From: Microbotryum violaceum
Taxonomy: Eukaryota
Direction of reading: 5' to 3'
NCBI GenBank assembly: GCA_001244265.2
Contig: CDLV01000007.1
Location: 1,860,001 to 1,924,000, forward strand
Length of the DNA stretch: 64,000 bases
A program made the position numbers and the translations under genes. Shown here one piece after another: positions 16,754 to 44,300 of this stretch (positions within the stretch are counted from its first letter, which is position 1; every line of letters starts with the position of its first letter). The notes beneath the pieces were generated by a model. That model saw nothing but the letters and a program-made list of their open reading frames with translations, made no database searches and was not told where the DNA came from.

Positions 16754-17113
16754 TGTGAAGAGTCCACTCTCAGCTCGACAGGGGCGCCTCGGTCGTTGCG
16801 CGAGCCCGCTAGCCCGCCCCCCTGCGGTGAGGACTTAGACGCGCGCGACTGCCTCAGCGCGCCAGCGATTTCACCCACGGCTGGGCCTATCCCAGCCCGG
16901 GCCCCCTTTTTGTTTCTTAGCTTCCTTCTCATCACTTCTGTTTGACTCTCAACCTCTCCTGAGAGTCGTGGTGATCATCTTATAGGTACGCTGAAATACA
17001 TCACTTCTTTTTGACTCTCAACCTCTCCTGACAGTCGTGGTGATCGTCTTATAGGTTATTCGCCCATTGACCTACCGCTGGCATGAACACGTCGTTGCCC
17101 CTAACGACGGGTG
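16754..17113 (+). mobile_element. Copia LTR family A (16754-17053, TG...TA, duplicated 3' unit) plus PBS and first bases of gag, truncated by the next element
   Basis: Starts TGTGAAGAGTCCACTCTCAGCTCG, ends CTTATA|GGTTATTCGCCC. The internal stub matches 27320-27382. Confidence 0.85.
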
Positions 17114-17337: not shown

Positions 17338-19278
17338 TCACACCCCCCCCCCCACGCGAATGCAAGGCAGACCCAAGCGTGGGTGTCGAGTGCGCAAGCC
17401 AAGAGCATAGCAATGCATGGAAAAAATCTTTGGGCCAAGTGCCTTGGTAAAGATGTTGGCCACCATGTTGCTTGTCCCCACGTGGGAAAGAGAAATCTCA
17501 CCCCGATTCACCATGTCCCGAACGAAGTGCTCACGCAGACGGATATGTCGAGTCCCGGATGCGCGGACAGGGTCTCGTGCGACAGCGGCAGCAGCTTCGT
17601 TGTCAGTGTAGATGTGAGCTGGGATACCAGACTGGACATGGAGCTCCTCAAGCAGCTGACTGAGGTAGATCCCTTCCTTGCCAGCATGCGAGAGAGCGAG
17701 GTATTCCGCGTCGGTGGTAGAGTCGGCGACCCGCGATTGACGCTTGGAGGACCAGGATACAGCGGAGCCGGCAATGTAGAAGACGAAACCCATGGTGGAG
17801 ACCGATGTGTCGACGCAGGCACCCCAGTTTGCATCGGAGTAACCTACCACGCCCGTGATGCCCATCTTACCACAAGTGTAGAGAAGCTCGTCGCGATAAG
17901 TGGCTCGGAGGTAGCGTAGGACATGCTTGACGGCAATCCAATGGCGCTGACCCGGGTTGTTGGCGAAGCAGGCCAGGTAAGATACGGCAAAGGCGCTGTC
18001 GGGGCGAGTGCCAAGTGAGATGTATAAGAGCGAGCCGATTGCCTGTAGATACCATGACCTGATCTGTTCCGTGCCTTGACCCGGAATGGCGGTGAGCGAA
18101 AGACCGGGGGTCATCGGGACGGTAGCGCTGCGAGTCGTAGTGTCGAAGTGGAACCGAGCGAGCACGTCCATGATGTACCGTTCCTGGCATAGGGCGATAG
18201 AGCCGTCGTTGAGCCGCCTGATCTGGATGCCGAGGATGTACTCGGCCGGTCCAAGGCCTTTGACACTGTAACGTTGTTCCAGGCCCGAGATGACGCGTTC
18301 GATCTCGGCCAGGTCCGGGCTGATCATCAGAAGGTCGTCGACGTACAGTGCGATGTAGTGTGGGCTTTGACGATCGTCGAGCCGAGAGTAGACGCAGTGA
18401 TCGGTGCCCGTCGCCGTATACCCGAGAGCACGAAGCGAAGCGTCGATGTGTCGATTCCAGATGCGGCCGGCCTGTTTGAGCCCGTAGATGGAACGGCGCA
18501 GTCGAAGCACCTTGTCGCTGGGAAGGTCGAAGCCGCGCGGTGCCGTCATCCAGATGTCGTGATCGAGGTCGCCGTGAAGATAGGCTTTGTCGATGTCCGC
18601 TTGGTGTACATGCAGGCCGTTGGCGGCCGCGAGCGCGAGGAGTGAGCGTATTGAAGAGAAGCGGGCAACGGGTGCGAACGTCTCGTTGAAGTCGATGCCG
18701 TCGCGTTGGTGATTGCCCTGCGCAACGAGCCGTGCCTTGTGTCCAGTGACGTCGCCGAGTGCGTTCCGTTTGGTTTTCCAGACGAACTTGGACGTGACGA
18801 TGGTCGCACCAGGGGGTACTGTAGAGCGATCGTCGATGGTGAAGACCTTGAAGTCATCTCGCATGGAATTGAACTCGTCGGTGGCGGCCTTGGCCCATAC
18901 CTCACGCTTGTCGCTGGACATTGCCTCGCGCCAGGTCTGTGGGTCACTGGTGATGGACTTAACTGGTTGAATGGCCTCGGCGTCAGACACGTCGTCGTCG
19001 GTTGCAATGAATGCGCGGTGATGTCGGATGAGGAAAGCGAGTTCGTCCGGCGATTCGTCGTGAGAGGGGTGCCCAATGAGGTCGAGTTCGTCAGGAGACT
19101 CCTCAGCCGATGCGGGCTCACGGTACGTGCTGAAGTCTGGGTGGTGCACGGCCGGTGGGTCGAAGCGAACCTGGGGCTGTGAGCCGATAAGGTTGAGAGG
19201 ATCGGCGGAGTATTCAGAGTCAGTCGGTAAAGCCGATGGTGACGATGACGCAGCCGACGATGTGGAAGGCACAGGCAA
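17338..19278 (-). pseudogene. Copia RT/RNase H ORF
   Basis: [54 protein letters not shown]. Confidence 0.92.
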
Positions 19279-21517
19279 TGGCGACGTGGGCGGCTCAGGC
19301 GACGGTGACGAGGACAGGACGACGGCGAGGAGGACGGTTCGGCATCTGTGGGGTTAAGTAAGGTTCCGCCAGTGTACCCTGGGGCCACGTCAACGGCGCT
19401 CATGGGAGAATCATCAAGGGGGGATGAGACGTCCATGTGCGCCGACCTTACTAGTGGGGTCCTCGTCTTGATGGCGGGGGCGGGCGGATTGGCAGGAACG
19501 ACGACGTAGCGTTCGGTGTTGGCCAAGTTGACGGGTGCGTCGTCCTGCAGGCCGGGGAAGTCGTTGTCCAAGAAGGTGACATTTCGGCCAAGTACAATCT
19601 TGTTGACGGAGTGGTCAAAAAAACGGAAAGCCTTGGAGGCGAGGTCGTAACCGGTGAAGATCACGCGCCTGGCTTTGGGGTCGAGCTTGTTGCGAAGGTC
19701 CGGGGCGATCGTGAGCCAGGCGGCGCAGCCAAACGGGTGGAGGGCGGTGGCGGTGGTGCGTTGGCCGTTTCAAGCGGATTCTGGAGTCTGTTTGGCTAAA
19801 GCGGAGTGTGAGCACCTGTTTTTGCAATGAACAAAGTACGCGGCCGCCTCATCCCAAAAGGTGGCGGGCAAACGAGAATCGGCGAGGAGAGCGAGGACAC
19901 CTTCGACGATGGAAAGGTTGACACGTTTGGCGCGACCATTTTGTTGAGGTGTGTACGGTATAGAGTACTGGCGGCGAATACCCCTGGACTTGCAGAACTC
20001 CGTGAAGGCAGTGAAGCGATACTCCCCACCATTGTCGGAGCGGAGGATCTTCAAGCGTGCGTTTGTCTCCAATTCCACCTCGGCGAGCCAAGTCTTGAAG
20101 GTTGGAAAGACGTCGCTTTTGTGGTCGATCGCGTATGCCCAGAGTTTGCGAGAGTGGTCGTCGAGTAACGTGACGAGGTAGCGCTTGCCGGTCAAAGACG
20201 GAGTCGGAAACAACAGGACGTTGCTGTGTACGAGGCCGAGTCTCTCGGAGGAGTGCGAGTCCGAGTCAGGGAAAGGGAGGCGATGGCCTTTGGAACCAAG
20301 GCAAGCATTGCAAACAAACTGCTCTATGTCTTTGTCACTATATCCGACCCCAAACCCGTCCAACAAACCAGCGGCCATCATCTTCTGTATAGAGGATGGA
20401 GCAAGATGGCCGAGGCAGCGATGGAGGGTAAGCAGGGGCACGGTGGACTCAGAACGCGAGAGTAAGGCAAGATGCTGACATTTTGAGTGATCCGCGTCCA
20501 GGAGGTAGAGACCCTCGTCGACCCTGTGACCTTGAGCGATGGCCTGACCGTCCTTCGCGATGTTGATGCCTTCGTTGGTGAAGGCGAGTTGAACACGGTC
20601 GGTGTCGCAGAGGCGAGAGACGGATAGAAGGTTGACGGCGAGACCAGGCGTATGAAGGACGCCACGCAGCGTGATCGGATGTCCGGACTTGGCAACGAAG
20701 GCCACGTCACCGATGCCAATGGCCGTGATGCCGCCTGCAATGCCGCCTATTTTGGTTTGCGCCGTGCGGCGGTACGTGGTGAACAGAGACCGATCAGCAA
20801 CCATGTGTGCCGTGGCACCCGAATCAACCACAAAGGCGTCATCAGGGAGGTGGCGGCAAGCAAACAGGCAGGAGGCGAAATAGCCGATGTTAGGCTGTTG
20901 AGACGCAGTTGATACCGAGTCGTCGTGGTTGCTGTCGCTGGTGGTTTTCTGCTCCCCTTGGTGCTTGCAGTCGAGGGCCCAGTGGCCTTTTTTGTGGCAT
21001 CGGCAGCAAGGACCGGTGGGGGGTGCTTGGCTCGCGACTTGCAGTCGCGAAGGCGGTGACCAGGGGCGTGGCAGGCTGGACAAAGCGATGGCGTGGCGAG
21101 CATGTCCAAAGGCGAGGTGGAAAGTCCTGCCGAGCGAAGTTGGATGCGGATGCGGTCCGTGAGCGTCATGAGTTTGGGAAGTTTGCGCTGGCTTTGCTGC
21201 TCGTCTGTGAAGGTCAGGCGGAAGCTGTTGAGGCAGGACGGAACCATGGCGAGGACGTGGGTGGCGAGGACGTGGTGGCGAGGACGTGGGTGGCGAGGAC
21301 GTCGTTGAGCGATGTTTTGGCATCACGGATTTCTTGTGCAACCGACATGTACTCGCGGAGCCAAGTGTCGTATGCCTCGACGGAAGCGGGCATCTTCTTG
21401 AAATCCCAAAGACGGGCGAAGAGTTTGAGGGTGCGCGTGGCATCGTCCGGTGCAAAACGAGCCTTGAGAGTCGCAAAAATGCGAGGGGCTGACAGCTGGT
21501 CGCTGGGATGGCATCGA

Positions 21518-23587
21518 TGTCATTATATGGTTGCATCGTCCTTCAGTCTACGTATAGTACCTGTTATGGTACTTCATCTTGAGCCTCTAGCGACTTCATG
21601 AATCCCTTCAGCACCTCATTTGTCTTACCCTTTTTTAGTCACTATTAGCTCTTTATTATCTCCGCTTATCATCCCTTCCTAGTCCTTCTGGAGTTTGTCC
21701 CTTAGCCTTTGGCCACTCTGTTCTCGTCCCGTTCCATTGGACTGAGTCATGGTCTTCATCAGGTATGCATTCTCTGGAATCCTACTCACTCTGTTCTCGT
21801 CCCGTTCCATTGGACTGAGTCGTGGTCTTCATCAGTTACCACATGAGAACATTTTTACAATAGGTTATGAGCCCAACGAGCTACCAAGCTGCTCTCGAGC
21901 CTTCGTCTTCCGCCCTCATCTCTAGGATCCACCTTAGCGACAATCCGAACTCGTACGAAGAATGGTCCGTCTGGATCAGCAACCATCTTCGTCGCAAGAA
22001 ATGTTTGGATGTCACAACTGTGGGCATTCCTGCTCTGCTAGCGATCTATGAGGCCGCCCTTGTCACCCCGTCCACTTCGCAAGCAACCTCCGCAGGCGCA
22101 AAGATTTCACCCGCCGCGCCTCGCGCGCTCACCTCTGCTCAGCAAGGACTTGTCGACATCTACACCCTTGATCTTGAAGCCAAGGATGACAAAGCTGCTG
22201 AGTTGATCAACAACACAATTACCGGTTCTCAAATGAAGATTATCAAGAATTGTGTTTCAGCCCATGAGATGTGGACCGCCCTACGGATTCACCACACCAA
22301 AGGCGCTGAAGCTCGCTTCATCCAGCTCATCCCCGTCATCTTCCGGAGCACGTTCACGCGTTCCAACACGTCCAATTTCAAGTCGTTTGTTTCCAACTTC
22401 CTAAACGCCGTTGAGGAAATCTCCACTATGGGTGTTCCACTGCCTGGTTTTGCGCAAGCCGCTCTACTCGTCCATTCGCTTCCGCCCGAATGGGAAAGTA
22501 TTGCAAGTAGCCTTACTACCAACCTCACCCTCGCTACAGACATTGATTCGTTCATTGCTGTCCTCTACGCTCAAGTTGATCGCAAAATGGCCTCGTCTTC
22601 TACTACTCATGGAGCCGAGCGCCACGCTTACGGGGGGATTGAATCCGCGCTGGCTATGTCCGCGCAAAGTCACGATCACTCCAAGGTTCACTGCAAGAGT
22701 TGCAACGTTATGGGGCATAGTTCCAAGTGGGCTGGTTGCCCTTCCCTCAAGAAAGCGCAAGCAGTCAAGGAGGAAGCAGCCAAAGCTATGTTTGTTAACA
22801 GCGCTTTCTGTCACTCGCTTTAATCGTCACAAGTCCTCGTCGTATCGGTCTTCTTCAAGCCGATCACCCGTCCAAGTTTCGTATCGGTGTCTCTTCATCA
22901 GCCCGATCAACCGTCAAGTCGTATTGGTATTCTTGCCAATCACCGTCCCCGTCTGCGAACATGATGGCTTCGTACACCAGCCCTTCGCTCCAAGTCCAAG
23001 TAGTGCCAACTAGTCCACCAGCGTACTCTGGTTTGTTGGCTTCCGTCCCCGCATTTGGTTATACTGGTCCCTTTCAGATCAGTTCTCCAGCCCGTTTTAT
23101 GGCGTCATTGTCCGTCATACCGCCACCCGTCTTCGGCCCCTTTTACCCGAACAAGTCCCGTCGCTTTCGGCTTTACCCGATCTCGTCAAAAGTCTTCGAC
23201 CATGTACCGTTTACTCCATCTTCGGACCTTCCAACCGGGGAGTGTCATTATATGGTTGCATCGTCCTTCAGTCTACGTATAGTACCTGTTATGGTACTTC
23301 ATCTTGAGCCTCTAGCGACTTCATGAATCCCTTCAGCACCTCATTTGTCTTACCCTTTTTTAGTCACTATTAGCTCTTTATTATCTCCGCTTATCATCCC
23401 TTCCTAGTCCTTCTGGAGTTTGTCCCTTAGCCTTTGGCCACTCTGTTCTCGTCCCGTTCCATTGGACTGAGTCGTGGTCTTCATCAGGTATGCATTCTCT
23501 GGAATCCTACTCACTCTGTTCTCGTCCCGTTCCATTGGACTGAGTCGTGGTCTTCATCAGTTACCACATGAGAACATTTTTACAATA
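21518..23587 (+). mobile_element. Young gag-only non-autonomous LTR retrotransposon (family E); 345-bp LTRs 21518-21862 and 23243-23587; TSD ATCGA
   Basis: Nearly identical LTRs ending TG...TA. ATCGA at 21513-21517 and 23588-23592. PBS at 21863, PPT GGGGAG at 23237-23242. No pol motifs. Confidence 0.93.
21867..22823 (+). CDS. Copia-type Gag (318 aa) with C-terminal zinc knuckle
   Basis: NSYEEWSVWI, SAHEMWTAL, LVHSLPPEWE, CKSCNVMGHSSKWAGC; uninterrupted ORF between PBS and 3' LTR. Confidence 0.85.
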   Translation: MSPTSYQAALEPSSSALISRIHLSDNPNSYEEWSVWISNHLRRKKCLDVTTVGIPALLAIYEAALVTPSTSQATSAGAKISPAAPRALTSAQQGLVDIYTLDLEAKDDKAAELINNTITGSQMKIIKNCVSAHEMWTALRIHHTKGAEARFIQLIPVIFRSTFTRSNTSNFKSFVSNFLNAVEEISTMGVPLPGFAQAALLVHSLPPEWESIASSLTTNLTLATDIDSFIAVLYAQVDRKMASSSTTHGAERHAYGGIESALAMSAQSHDHSKVHCKSCNVMGHSSKWAGCPSLKKAQAVKEEAAKAMFVNSAFCHSL

Positions 23588-24045
23588 ATCGAGGGCCGCC
23601 GAGACGTTGGCTGAGTCAATAGAGCCAACGATGATCTCGCGGGCAGCATCGTCACGGGCGGGCAGCTGCTCGGCCGTCCAGGTAGCGGGGATGACACCGT
23701 CGAGGACGTAGCTCCGAAGCTGGTTCGGGAGCGTCAGACGGAGTTGACGCAACCAATTCGTAAAAGATTTGGGTCCGTCAAGGCGAGCGTGTTTGGGAAA
23801 CACAACTTTGGATGCGGTGGTGGCGTGGACCGGCGTGGCTGCAACGGCCGGGGGCGTGGGAGCGGCAGCGGCTAGGGGCTGTGAGGCCTGCAGAGCGGCG
23901 AGTTGCGCCTGGAGAGTGGCGATTTGCGCGCTGAATGAGGGCTCAGGGGAGCTGGAATCCCTGGGCGGCAAGGGTGCGGCAGGAGGGCTGTCCATGCTGC
24001 GAGGGATGTGTGCGGTGCGAGTGGTTGGGCTCGAAAAATCCCTCA

Positions 24046-24046
24046 A

Positions 24047-24078
<32 letters not shown>
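24046..24078 (-). promoter_or_regulatory. Extended primer-binding site complementary to the 5' half (anticodon and D arms) of a tRNA-Met(CAU)
   Basis: Plus strand reads GGAGCAGCTGGTAGCTCGTTGGGCTCATAACC directly beside the LTR end; related sites at 21863, 37696, 30207, 41756, 50770, 25015 and 59988. Confidence 0.85.
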
Positions 24079-24458: not shown

Positions 24459-25910
<1,452 letters not shown>

Positions 25911-28082: not shown

Positions 28083-31000
28083 TATTCGATCACTCTACTA
28101 CGTCAGCGATGTAGTTCTAGCCAAGAGTGATGAATCATTACAACATACCTATTCGATCAACTCTACTACATCAGCGATGTAGTTATAGCCAAGAGTGATG
28201 AATAGGAAGCTAACAACAAGAGAGCCGCGCGCCTCACGTCCTCAGGCTGCGAACCTTGGGGCTGAGCCAATGGCCCAGGCTCGCCCTGCGCGCCTAAGTC
28301 CTGGGGCTGTGTGCGCCTGGCTCGCTCCACGCGCCTAAGTCCTGAGCCAATGCGCCTGGCTTGTTCTGCGCGCCTAAGTCCTTGGCCGGTGCGCCAGGCG
28401 AGCGTGCGCCTAAGTCCTGGGCCGGTGCGCCAGGCTCGCTCTGCGCGCCTAAGTCCTGAGCCGAGCGGAGAGTGGATTCCTCACAGTCTCTTGGGGGAAT
28501 GTGACTCTGAGTCGGGAAAAGGAAGACGATGGCCTTTGGAACCAAGGCAAGCATTGCAAACAAACTCGTCTACGTCTTTGTCACTGTACCTGGCCCCGAA
28601 ACCGTCCAGCAAACCTGCAGCAATCATCTTTTGTATGGAGGATGGGGCAAGATGGCCGAGGCAGCGGTGAAGGGTAAGCAGGGGCACGGGAGACTCAGAA
28701 CGTGAGAGCAAGGCAAGCTGCTGACATTGGGTGTGGTCCGCATCCAAAAGGTAGAGACCGTCGTTGACGCAAGTCCCATGAGCGATGGCCTGGCCGTCCT
28801 TGGCAATGTCGATCCCGTCGCTGGTGAAGGCGAGTCGAACGCGGTCGGTGTCGCAGAGGCGAGAGACAGAGAGAAGGTTGACGTGAAGACCAGGCGTGTG
28901 AAGAACGCCACGCAACGTGATTGGGTGTCCGGTCTTGGTAATGAACGCCACATCCCCCATGCCAATGGCCGTGATGCCGCCTGCGATACCGCCGACCCTG
29001 GTGTGCGCCGTCTGACGATAAGTCGTGAACAGCGAGCGATCGGCGACCATGTGTGTCGTGGCGCCCGAGTCGACGACGAAGGCGTCGGTCGGGAGATGGC
29101 GGCGAGCGAGTAGGCAGGAGGCGAAATAGCCGACATTTGGTTGTTGAGCCGCCGATGAGGGTGTGTTGTCCTGGTTGTCGTCGCCGATTCGTTTTTGGTC
29201 GCCTCGCGGTTTGCAGTCGAGGGCCCAGTGACCCTTCTTGTAGCAGCGACGGCAGGGGCCGGTGGGGGGTGTTGAGCGCGTGAGGTGCAGTCACGAAGGC
29301 GGTGACCGGGGGCGCGGCAGGCAGGGCATAGGGAGGCGGTAGCGAGCATGGCCGAGTGCGAGGTGTAGAGTCCCGCCGAACAAAGTTGGACGCGAATGCG
29401 GTCGGTCAGCGTCGTCAGCTCGGGAAGGTCGCGTTGGTGGCGTTGCTCGTCCGTGAACGTGAGTCGAAAGCTGTCGAGGCACGATGGGACCATGGCAAGC
29501 ACGTGAGTGGCGAGTACGTCGTTGAGCGAAGTTTTGGCGTCGCGAATTTCTTGTACGATGGACATGTACTCGCGCAGCCAGGTGTCGTATGCCTCAACGG
29601 AGGCAGGCATCTTCCTGAAATCCCAAAGGCGGGCGAACAACTCGAGGGTGCGGGTAGCATCGTCCGGTGCAAAGCGAGCCTTGAGAGCGGTGAAGATGTG
29701 CGGTGCTGAGAGATCGTCATTGGGAATGGCGTCGAGTGTGGCCAAGACGTCCGCGGAGTCGATAGAGCCAACGATGAGTTCCCGGGCGTCGTCGTCACGG
29801 GCGGCAAGCTGATTGGCCGTCCAAGTAGCGGGAACAACACCTTCGAGGACATAAGCATGGACTTGATTCGGGAGCGCAAGACGGAGTTGACGCAACCAGT
29901 TGGTGAACGATTTGGGACCGTCGAGGCGAGCGTGTTTGGGAAACACGACTTTGGCTGAGGTAGCGGCGTTGGTCTGCGTGGCGGGGGCGGCCAGGAGTGC
30001 GGGGCAGCGGTGGCGGGAGAGTGCGAGGCCTGCAGGGCAGCGAGCTGTGCCTGTAGAGTTGCAATTTGTGCGGCAATCGAGGATTCAGGGGGGCTGGGAG
30101 AATCCTTGGGGGCAAGGGCGGTGCGAGAGCGGGAGAGTCGCCCATGGTGCGAATGGATGTGTGCGGTCGAGTGGCTAAGCTCGAGAAAAAAAATGCAAGG
30201 CGGCGAGGCTGGTAGCTCGTGGGCTTATAACCTATTCGATCAACTCTACTACGTCAGCGATGTAGTTATAGCCAAGAGTGATGAATCCATTACAACATAC
30301 CTATTCGATCAACTCTACTACGTCAGCGATGTAGTTATAGCCAAGAGTGATGAATAGGAAGCTAACAACAAGAGAGCCACGCACCTCAAGTCCTCAGGCT
30401 GCGAACCTTGGGGCTGAGCCAGTGGCCCAGGCTCGCCCTGCGCGCCTAAGTCCTGGGGCTGTGTGCGAGGCTCATTTCGCGCGCCTAAGTCCCAGGCTCA
30501 CTCCTCGTGCCTAAGTCCTGAGCCGGTGCGCCTGGCTTATTCCGCGCGCCTAAGTCCTGGGCCGGTGCGCCAGGCTCGCTCTGCGCGCCTAAGTCCTGAG
30601 CAGAGCGGAGAGTGGATTCCTCACAGTCTCTTGGGGGAATGTGACTCCGAGTCGGGAAAAGGAAGACGATGGCCTTTGGAACCAAGGCAAGCATTGCAAA
30701 CAAACTCCTCTACGTCTTTGTCACTGTACCCGGCCCCAAACCCGTCCAGCAAACCCGCAGCGATCATCTTCTGTATAGAGGATGGAGCAAGGTGGCCGAG
30801 GCAGCGGTGGAGGGTAAGTAGGGGCACGGTAGACTCAGAGCGTGAGAGAAAGGCAAGCTGCTGACATTTGGTGTGATCCGCGTCCAGGAGGTAGAGACCG
30901 TCGTTAACCCGTGTACCGTGAGCAATGGCCTGGCCGTCCTTGGTGATGTCGATGCTGTCGCTGGTGAAGGCAAGCCAAATGCGGTCGGTGTCACAAAGGC

Positions 31001-37441: not shown

Positions 37442-37695
37442 TATTAGGAGCAATATACCACTGCACCAAAAGGAGAGGCACCTCTACTTCAGGGAGCGCA
37501 TATTGTCCTAGAAGTGAGATGGAGGGAGGTTCAACACCCCCCTGTGCGCGAAGCTGAAGAGCTTGTGGCAGTGGGTGCGGCTTTGAAGGCAAGTGCGGGG
37601 CGCGCACGAAATTTGCCTGACCCAGGGGGTGCGGCTTTGGAGGCAAGTGCGGGGTGCGCGCAAAATTGCCTGACCCCAAGGGGGCTTGAACCCAT

Positions 37696-37726
<31 letters not shown>

Positions 37727-37762
37727 TATTAGGAGCAATATACCACTGCACCAAAAGGAGAG
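37442..37762 (-). mobile_element. TRIM-like miniature LTR element: 95-bp 3' LTR 37442-37536, PPT, 190-bp non-coding interior, PBS 37696-37726, truncated 5' LTR
   Basis: TATTAGGAGCAATATACCACTGCACCAAAAGGAGAG repeated at 37442 and 37727; G6 PPT; about 54-bp internal tandem duplication. Confidence 0.8.
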
Positions 37763-41336: not shown

Positions 41337-44300
41337 TGTAAGAGTTACAACTCTTTGTATTTCCTTCTCACACCGTCTCACCCTTTCTCTGCCTTATTCT
41401 TTCTGTGATTTTTGGCCTTTCCCTTCACCCTGCTCTCCCATCTCTGGGCTGGGTCTGTGCACCTGCATCAAGCGCACGGACCAAGCCATGCTCTGCCTGG
41501 CTCCCTCTATCTTCAGGCTGGGTCCGTGCGCTTAACACTGGGGCACGGACCTGGTTGCGCACTACCCCAGCGAACTGGCTCCGCGCTTCTCTCTCTCCTG
41601 CTTAAGCAACTTCATTGGTCTGGTCTCCCTGGTCCGTCGATCAGAGACTCACCACCGCTTGAGCAGGTGTGTAAGCTCAAGCAACTTCATTGGTCTGGTC
41701 TCCCTGGTCCGTCGATCAGAGACTCACCACCGCTTGAGCAGTTGTGTGGTTCATAGGTTATAAGCCACAACAAGCTACCAGCGCGGTCACCTCCGTGCCC
41801 GCCCTCGTCGTCGTTTTTTTTTTTTTTCGCGCTTCGCACGACTCAGCCTCGCCCTGCACCCTGCACGCCTGGCATGTCCGACGACGCCAAGTCCTTAACG
41901 CCTGGCATGTCCGACGACGCCAAGTCCTTAACGCTCGCGGTCCCCCACCGCGCCCTCCCACACAGGTCGCAGCCTTCGCTGTTTCCGACCTTCTGCGCGA
42001 CACCAACGGCTATCAAGACTGGGTCCTGACGCTATGCTCCCGTCTACCCTCCGACGTTATCGACTACCTTCAGTCTGGCGTCCCTTCGTCGTCCTGGCCG
42101 CCATCTTACGTTTCATTATGGGATCACTACGCCCGCGCCTCGATCTGCGCCGCCGTCGACCCTCGGATGGTTCTTCCCGGCCTCTCGCAATACTTCGGCG
42201 ACCCTCGCAGCGGTCACAAGATTTGGGTAGCTCTGCGCATGCGATATGGCGCTGTTTCGGCGGTCGATCTTCTCCCTGTCATCTCTCGACTCTTCAGTCC
42301 CGACCCTATGCCCGACACCGTCGACAAGTTCCTTCAGTTTCGCGACCGATTCGAGAACGACTCCCGCCTCCTCGACGACTCAAAGGTGACGACGGACTCC
42401 CTACTAGCGTCACACTTGCTCGCCCGGATGCCCTCCTCCCTCTCCGCCTGGCGCACTACGTTTGTCAATTCTCAGGGCACATCCCGTACACTGCCCCCTG
42501 CCGCCGAGATCCTCGACCGTATCTACCGCGAGATCAAGGCTCGTCCGGTCGACTCCCCCGTTGCCGCCACTACCACCTCTCAGCAACGCGTTCCCCATAG
42601 CCCTTGCCCCAACCCCTCTTGCCGAAAGATGCACTGGCTTCGGGACTGTCCCGACACCGCCTGGGCCGCCGCCTTCCGCGCCTGCAAGGCTGCCGCCGGA
42701 GCGACTTCGCGAAATCACAAGAAGGGTTCCCGCGCCGTCGCCTCTCCTGCTGTCACCTCCCCTGCCGTCGACGAGAAGTCAGAACCCGCCACCTTCACAG
42801 CGTGCCTCCTCGCCACCCCGTCTTCCTTTCCTAAGTCGGCTTGGCTCCTCGACTCCGGCGCTAATCGCCACATGGCCAACGACAGCCAGCTCTTCTCCAC
42901 CCTCCGGCCGTTCGCTGGCCCGCACGTTGCTGGAGTTGCCGGTTCTCTTCCGTCCACCGGTTGTGGCTCCGTCTGCCTCTCGACGTCAGCTGGCCCCGTT
43001 GTAGCGACCGACGTCCTCTTGGTACCTTCGCTCCCGTGCAACTTATTATCGGTCCGCCGTCTGGATTGACTCGGCTTCACCACCTCCTTCGGTTCCGGCC
43101 GCGCCACGATCCACAACTCCTCAGGCACCATCGTCGCCACGGCACAAGCAATCACAAATGACCTTTACGCGTTAACTGTCGCACCCTCACCCTGTATGCC
43201 CAATGCCCTCCTAGCCACCCCTCACAGAGTTTCCTTACTGACTATGCACCGTCGCTTCGCACATTTACCCGTCGCGCAACTCAAGAGCGTCGTGCAGAAA
43301 GGTTTGGTCACTGGGGTGGATTGGGTATATTCAGAGGAAGAGGTTAGGTCTTTCAATTGCAATGCTTGTCTCGCTTCCAAAGCGCATGCCCTCCCTTTTG
43401 CTCGTTCCAAGTCCATTGCATCCGGTCGCCTGGACCTCGTCCACGTCGACGTCGCCCAAATGCCTCGGGCCAGCTTCGGCGGTCATCGCTACATGCTTGT
43501 GATTGTCGACGACTACACCCGCAAACATTGGTGCATCCTCCTCACTCACAAAAGTGACGTCTTTCACCGTCTCCGCGCCTGGATTCTTGAGGTAGAGAAC
43601 GTCACGGGTGACCGGGTAAAGACTATTCGCTCCGACAATGGTGGCGAGTTCACTCTTCGGAACTTTGTCGATTTCTGTGTGGCCAAGGGTATACGTCGCG
43701 AGCTCACTATTCCGTACACCCCTCAACAAAACGGACGTGTTGAACGCACCAACCGCACCATCAAAGAGGGTATCCTTGCTTTACTCTACTCGGCAGGTGC
43801 TGACACGCGCCTCTGGGCTGAGGCCGCCACGTACTTCGTACACTGCAAGAACTTGATGCCGCACGCAGGCATTCGCGGTGATATCCCTGACACTCGTTGG
43901 TATGGCATTGCACCGGATGTATCCTCATTACGTGCCTTCGGTTGTCGTGCGTGGCACTACCTTCCCTCGGTTAAGCGCACCGCCCTCGATCCAAGGCTGT
44001 GCCGCTCATGTTCGTAGGGCTCGACGACCACGCAAAGGCGTATCGCCTATTCGACCCGGCTACACGCAAAATCCTCCTCAGTCGCAACGTCGTCTTTCGC
44101 GAATCCGAGTTCCCTGCCTTGCAGAGCGTGGTCGACACCCACACTGGCACCACTCCACTTCCTGTGGCCGCCGACATTCACCCCGACCAGGTAGACCACT
44201 CTGAGCCGTCGCTCGTTGCTTCCCCTCACTCTCTTGCGCCTCGTGCCGAGTCCCGGACCCTATCGACCTCTTGCCGCGCTCGAGTGATCTCGCTTCCTTC

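Follow-up and report, generated by a model that had tools for sequence, protein, structure and literature searches.

Long primer-binding sites in Microbotryum violaceum retrotransposons match the 5' half of an atypical initiator tRNA, with a candidate edge at m1G9

Ty1/copia retrotransposons of Microbotryum violaceum, and smaller elements that appear to depend on them, carry long primer-binding sites (PBSs) that match the 5' half of the host's own initiator tRNA. Across the genome this match ends most often at tRNA position 10, and the copies that run on to the tRNA 5' end all differ from it at position 9. Half-tRNA priming is itself already known, including priming with spliced initiator tRNA (iMet) in rust fungi; what is new is the position-10 edge together with the position-9 errors, across 100 of 109 genomic sites. 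The long PBS is probably a plus-strand copy of the attached primer, made by an RT that stopped before m1G9 or misread it, and sometimes inherited or captured. The feature is real, this account of PBS length is testable, and the single-copy initiator tRNA is unusual.

Within the window, the whole 64,000-nt stretch of DNA that was analysed, a gag-only element is inserted inside a minus-strand copia element that has a PBS of its own, and further PBSs belong to a miniature element and to three degenerate families (window coordinates):

21513..21517 (+): target-site duplication, left copy, 5 bp, identical to the five bases at 23588-23592
21518-23587 (+): gag-only copia element, 2070 bp, non-autonomous, delimited by LTRs, target-site duplication and gag ORF
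21518..21862 (+): 5' LTR, 345 bp, ends TG...TA, one difference from the 3' LTR over 345 bp
21863..21894 (+): PBS, complementary to positions 40 to 10 of the spliced tRNA-iMet except for one extra base facing the D-loop
21867..22823 (+): gag ORF, 318 aa (Pfam Retrotran_gag_2, E 4.8e-16)
23237..23242 (+): candidate PPT, a short purine run 5' of the 3' LTR, with a putative role
23243..23587 (+): 3' LTR, paired with the 5' LTR
23588..23592 (+): target-site duplication, right copy, equal to the left copy
17338..21517 (-): pol region of the surrounding copia element, in several frames (Pfam Pol_BBD, gag_pre-integrs, rve, SH3_retrovirus, RVT_2)
24047..24078 (-): PBS of the surrounding copia element, perfect 32-nt match to tRNA positions 40 to 9
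37442..37762 (-): TRIM-like element, by sequence anatomy a truncated 5' LTR, PBS, short internal part, G run and 95-bp 3' LTR
37696..37726 (-): PBS of this miniature non-coding (TRIM-like) element, perfect 31-nt match to positions 40 to 10 (cluster D0, 23 sites)
41756..41787 (+), also 50770 and 59988 (+) and 25044 (-): degenerate PBS of a coding copia family, with mismatches and an extra base relative to the tRNA half
17054..17082 (+), also 27320 (+): degenerate PBS of another family, by comparison with the tRNA half
30205..30232 (-): degenerate PBS of a third family, by the same comparison

The PBS at 21863-21894 and its reverse complement read as an earlier note on this DNA had given them. 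Complementarity to tRNA-iMet is perfect over 24 nt, meets the insertion, and continues for 7 nt more; it begins opposite nucleotide 40, flush with the 345-bp LTR with zero gap, which supports the proposal of half-molecule priming from the initiator. Of the two sister sites that the note had named, the one at 37696 stands (37696-37726, -), and the one at 24046 really lies at 24048-24078 (-), or 24047-24078 with one more matching base. The doubled D-loop T that had been read from 21863 into the tRNA is a one-base insertion common to 7/7 PBS-bearing copies of this family, which has LTR-only matches besides; the host tRNA and the other two sites have a single T, and a DNA search with the initiator revealed no second isodecoder with a doubled T. 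The PBSs of the coding families in the window are worn, and the conservation of two sequence blocks claimed for the degenerate families holds at 25044, 30232, 41756, 50770 and 59988 and fails at 17054 and 27320, where both blocks are mutated.

The surrounding element encodes protease, integrase, SH3 and RT in copia order, the domain order of Ty1/copia elements (Pseudoviridae). The inserted element, whose only coding region is a copia-type gag, shares the paired LTRs and 5-bp target-site duplication of that group and departs from it in its LTR ends, TG...TA in place of the TG...CA that is typical of Ty1/copia though not universal there. Genome-wide, the two bases before the PBS are TA at 77/100 sites and CA at 18/100, and with the first PBS base either LTR end yields YAG. 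The first AUG of the gag ORF is the PBS triplet opposite the anticodon, the next Met being residue 123, within the Retrotran_gag_2 domain; an in-frame stop codon lies immediately 5' of this PBS-borne AUG (21861-21869), and the family's one-base PBS insertion falls inside the gag frame. At three loci (L001, L006, L102) this same frame stays open over 165 codons, and when loss of the PBS AUG was compared with the reading frame across families the relation was inconsistent. Between 44200 and 63900 the window holds near-identical repeats with periods of ~1947 and ~9217 bp, which are either tandem element arrays or an assembly effect.

The miniature element D0 (37442-37762; L099, L100, L002) is found behind four LTR clusters and also in tandem arrays with periods of ~230 and ~284 bp, which suggests LTR swapping at the shared PBS. 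The stretch right after its PBS (37680-37695, -) resembles, by eye, a tRNA T-arm or B box, as in the tRNA-Ala of L038.

The primer is encoded by a nuclear tRNA-Met(CAU) gene, G000:C12:29062-29153, the one real gene among nine matches to a motif search and the sole nuclear copy found. It has a 19-nt intron at 37/38, A1:U72, A54, A60 and a downstream T run, and its ARAGORN structure closes the anticodon stem with three G-C pairs, a mark of initiator tRNAs. A DNA search with the initiator returned this one gene and six matches confined to the 5' exon, all six at LTR-adjacent sites; an intronless initiator gene was sought in the genome, and the only match was an element remnant. ARAGORN reported no tRNA gene within the window or the first 30 PBS loci, and a Rfam search in which 63 of 950 candidates were scored did not have the initiator gene among its results. 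In public run X12 the gene shows no difference inside the tRNA, an observation that bears on neither expression nor splicing, and it had no cover in the other three of the four runs examined (12 exist). A multi-copy repeat (L088:1300-1408) ends ~65 bp upstream of the gene.

The PBSs follow the spliced sequence: the site at 24047 matches spliced tRNA-iMet over 32 nt and the gene over 29 nt, and the spliced-form triplet opens 99/100 PBS sites where the intron triplet opens 0/100. Their partner is therefore the mature cytosolic initiator; the elongator tRNA-Met has only 6-7 nt in common with the PBS.

This initiator is atypical, as one option in the earlier note had it. The host gene has the A1:U72 pair, the three G-C pairs and the A54/A60 of eukaryotic cytosolic initiators; these normally have A20 and no nucleotide 17, and here an 8-nt D-loop contains U17 and U20. 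Its assignment accordingly rests on the other marks and on its being the only such gene found. The D-stem pair A11-U24 gives it the D-arm that marks bacterial and organellar tRNA-fMet, from which it departs in having A1, A54 and a 19-nt intron in place of C1 or U1, T54 and no spliceable 37/38 intron. The bacterial look that had been claimed for the D-arm extends over positions 9-37 (29 nt), which are identical in 123/123 metagenome matches listed, all of them bacterial-type initiators with C1 or U1 and T54; no eukaryotic-type initiator with this stretch was among the matches listed. The yeast cytosolic initiator shares A1:U72, A54 and A60 with the host gene and has A20 and no U17, as against U20, nucleotide 17 and the A11-U24 pair here (PMC10602860). 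With nucleotide 17 and without A20, this single-copy eukaryotic initiator is a naturally occurring departure from an elbow structure that is supposed to be conserved.

The first 23 nt of the PBS have 109 matches in the 33.2-Mb genome at <=2 mismatches, as against 0 for a reversed control, and this contrast, with the match to a real host tRNA gene, argues that the PBS match is not due to chance. One hundred of the 109 sites were read, and the counts on ends cover those 100; since sites were selected by their match to positions 40-18, shorter PBSs lie outside the count. Grouping by downstream sequence (BLAST groupings) gave 32 clusters, each scored by its longest member, except that D0 (23 sites) was scored by its 22-site majority. 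The match ends at position 10 in 11 clusters, at 9 in one, at 11 in four, at 1 in four, at 4-8 in five and at 12-19 in seven. For the edge at position 10 a crude post hoc P is ~7e-6, to be read with the proviso that the clusters may not all be independent; they may not be separate events, and D23 probably belongs to the D0 family.

All four copies that reach position 1 (L018, L091, L092, L104) differ from the tRNA at position 9, one by a deletion at 9/10 and the other three by substitutions, of which there are two kinds, and their other differences amount to 3 in 156 positions (crude post hoc P ~5e-6 for the errors at position 9, again for clusters that may not all be independent). The three substitutions stand opposite position 9, with position 10 correct. 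Among the clusters that end at 4-8, four of five have the correct base opposite G9, as do the five copies that end at position 9 itself, the window site at 24047 among them. Position 26 differs at only 1/54 sites matching positions 17-10, so G26 is apparently no block. The coding families keep their mismatches over many copies, an example being a change opposite position 34 in most copies of D1 and D2, and L102 is tRNA-exact to position 11, its 15 sister copies sharing a deletion at 17. L110, L112 and L113 are altered opposite tRNA position 25; read on the opposite strand, TCG has become TTG, the context of RIP-like mutation in anther smuts.

Several perfect tails are joined to foreign DNA. 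Those in L021, L091 and L017 lead not into the family interior but into a copy of the DNA upstream of them, in inverted orientation, those in L019 and L020 into DNA without a match in the window or at other sites, and those in L005 and L130 into other elements. The L021 junction is a hairpin whose inversion starts directly after position 10, as would be expected if a DNA end at that point had folded back on four matching bases near the PBS start.

An edge at position 10 with errors at position 9 is the stop-or-misread signature expected of m1G9. The host initiator has G9 and the genome a Trm10 homologue (PDB match E 1.7e-27), so that tRNA-iMet would, to judge from sequence, be an m1G9-modified Trm10 substrate; yeast tRNAi carries m1G9 (PMC10602860), and Watson-Crick-face methylations cause RT stops and misreads (PMC8062790). 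In the proposed pathway, the primer of Ty1/copia elements and their dependants would be nucleotides 1-40, the 5' half, of the cytosolic initiator in its mature, spliced form, and this half would stay attached to the minus-strand DNA. Plus-strand synthesis would then reach the half-tRNA, and RT would copy it from position 40 toward the tRNA 5' end, usually halting before m1G9 to leave a 31-nt tail and less often reading through, with position 9 misread or skipped, to give a copy to position 1. The LTR-plus-tail DNA may complete second strand transfer, in some cases putting fresh tRNA sequence in place of the worn PBS of a family; alternatively, it may be caught up in fold-backs, exchanges of LTRs and stray insertions. 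Indirect support for the putative tRNA half on minus-strand cDNA comes from the four copies that run from position 40 all the way to position 1. As the coding families retain their mismatches, the tRNA copy cannot as a rule be inherited; for Ty1, a title in the reference list of PMC5371799 says that the primer sequence is not inherited.

That the 31 nt are under selection is an unlikely alternative, in which priming depends on, or benefits from, pairing along the full D-arm and anticodon arm, and the PBS is inherited from element RNA only. The degenerate families have indeed retained the blocks that face the anticodon loop and the D-loop, the predicted duplexes of their PBSs reach -37 to -49 kcal/mol with the extension as against -14 to -17 for positions 27-40 alone, and C. 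albicans has families with extensive matches to the internal part of tRNA-Arg (PMC4139406). Selection of this kind, however, predicts neither a common edge at 10, nor position-9 errors in full-length copies, nor perfect tails on foreign DNA, and the coding families tolerate mismatches and indels in the extension. The suggestion in the earlier note that priming uses about 31 nt of pairing survives as a possible secondary benefit: the length is better explained as a DNA-synthesis stop on the primer, but the predicted duplex energies allow extra pairing to help, and all 31 nt may plausibly take part in priming. On the primer-copy account the length would be set mainly by a modification on the primer, and extra pairing may help priming secondarily, an effect that is possible and compatible with copying.

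Less probable again is that copying is real and the position-10 edge reflects a primer trimmed to 10-40, m2G10 or structure, and not m1G9. Yeast tRNAi also carries m2G10 (PMC10602860), a trimmed fragment would leave the same edge, and four read-throughs are correct at 9; against this stand the three substitutions opposite position 9 with position 10 correct, the four copies that reach position 1, from which an untrimmed half was present, and the consideration that in a half molecule positions 1-9 would have no acceptor-stem partner. It is barely credible that the primer was a mitochondrial or bacterial-type tRNA-fMet fragment, the other option in the earlier note: the 123/123 identity over positions 9-37 and the small mitochondrial-like inserts in the genome speak for it, but the nuclear cytosolic initiator matches exactly, D-arm included, the very outcome by which the note had said that its organellar idea would fall, in four copies the match goes on through the initiator's acceptor strand (positions 8-1), a strand unlike that of all 123 bacterial-type matches listed, and Met is absent among the four mitochondrial-like tRNAs read in the nuclear assembly, so an organellar primer was rejected. 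A search for tRNA-Met in those four tRNAs and the first 10 kb of contig C20 found none. The four (L274:4978-5050, L275:4944-5014, L276:5015-5086, L277:4930-5000) are AT-rich tRNAs of mitochondrial appearance that lie in nuclear DNA, within short patches of low GC content. Seven further loci (L054, L057, L063, L068, L072, L078, L080) hold a dispersed tRNA-like repeat with varying anticodon, a common upstream flank and a T-rich tail, a candidate SINE or Helenus-like element.

Copying of the primer up to m1G9 would bear on the way in which plus-strand synthesis is completed in retrotransposons primed by half-tRNAs. To judge from the copies, the entire mature 5' half serves as primer, RT uses it as a template, and a methyl group of the host fixes the edge, much as m1A58 does in retroviruses; the copies also offer a way to read tRNA modifications from genome assemblies, and the account is testable in existing yeast systems.

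In Ty5 and copia the PBS pairs over about 14-15 nt, and a stop before G26 would leave 14 nt, the same length. The G-C pairs required for G26 dimethylation in yeast are 10-25 and 11-24. Yeast tRNAi has dimethyl-G26 (PMC10602860), and in yeast this dimethylation needs two consecutive D-stem G-C pairs (preprint 10.1101/2025.05.02.651894). The odd D-arm and the odd PBS length may thus be cause and effect. A wider reading, offered tentatively, is that the length of a half-tRNA PBS depends on which RT-blocking modification of the primer is met first: with dimethyl-G26 the PBS would measure 14 nt (40-27), as in Ty5/copia and the rust TRIM core, and here the A11-U24 D-stem would prevent G26 dimethylation, letting RT run on to m1G9 to give 31 nt. 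On that reading the genome would amount to a natural sequencing record of tRNA modifications, families could exchange parts at the common tail, and the only cytosolic initiator would function although it lacks the A20 elbow element; its D-arm may descend from bacteria or mitochondria. In the literature searched, judged by titles, abstract openings and passages, neither an m1G9-limited PBS nor such an initiator was found described; older subscription papers may well describe one.

Yeasts, flies and some plant lineages are known to have elements primed by half-tRNAs (PMC6317226, PMC13017519). The sites described here are of the Hemivirus type (PMC1181622), with a PBS to the iMet anticodon arm that starts opposite nucleotide 40 and is flush with the LTR. 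With S. cerevisiae Ty5, Drosophila copia and 1731 and Volvox Osser, a group that is not monophyletic (PMC1181622), they share copia domain order, an LTR-flush PBS and synthesis from nucleotide 40; they differ in complementarity that reaches position 10 (31 nt) and at times position 1. Rust fungi also use half-tRNA priming with spliced iMet (PMC10886601, section 3.6), and that section makes no mention of primer copying or a position-10 stop. In part 1 of 11 of the supplement to that report, which deals with rust Copia families and Helenus TRIMs, 8/10 iMet-type internal consensus sequences have the same 14 nt in common and diverge beyond them (counted by eye). Helenus LTRs hold a tRNA-like promoter, and the same report found none in Microbotryum (PMC10886601). 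The C. albicans families resemble those described here in having a long PBS that matches a tRNA interior in a fungal element; the tRNA is another one, and the available text gives no mechanism for the length (PMC4139406). The nearest mechanistic likeness is to retroviruses, in which plus-strand synthesis copies the primer up to a modified base (PMC13191261): at their plus-strand strong stop, too, a methyl group on the primer, m1A58, blocks RT and so determines how long the PBS is, and read-through products are minor. In M. violaceum, by contrast, the primer is a 5' half, for which reason the block would be m1G9 and not m1A58, and the products are known as genomic fossils.
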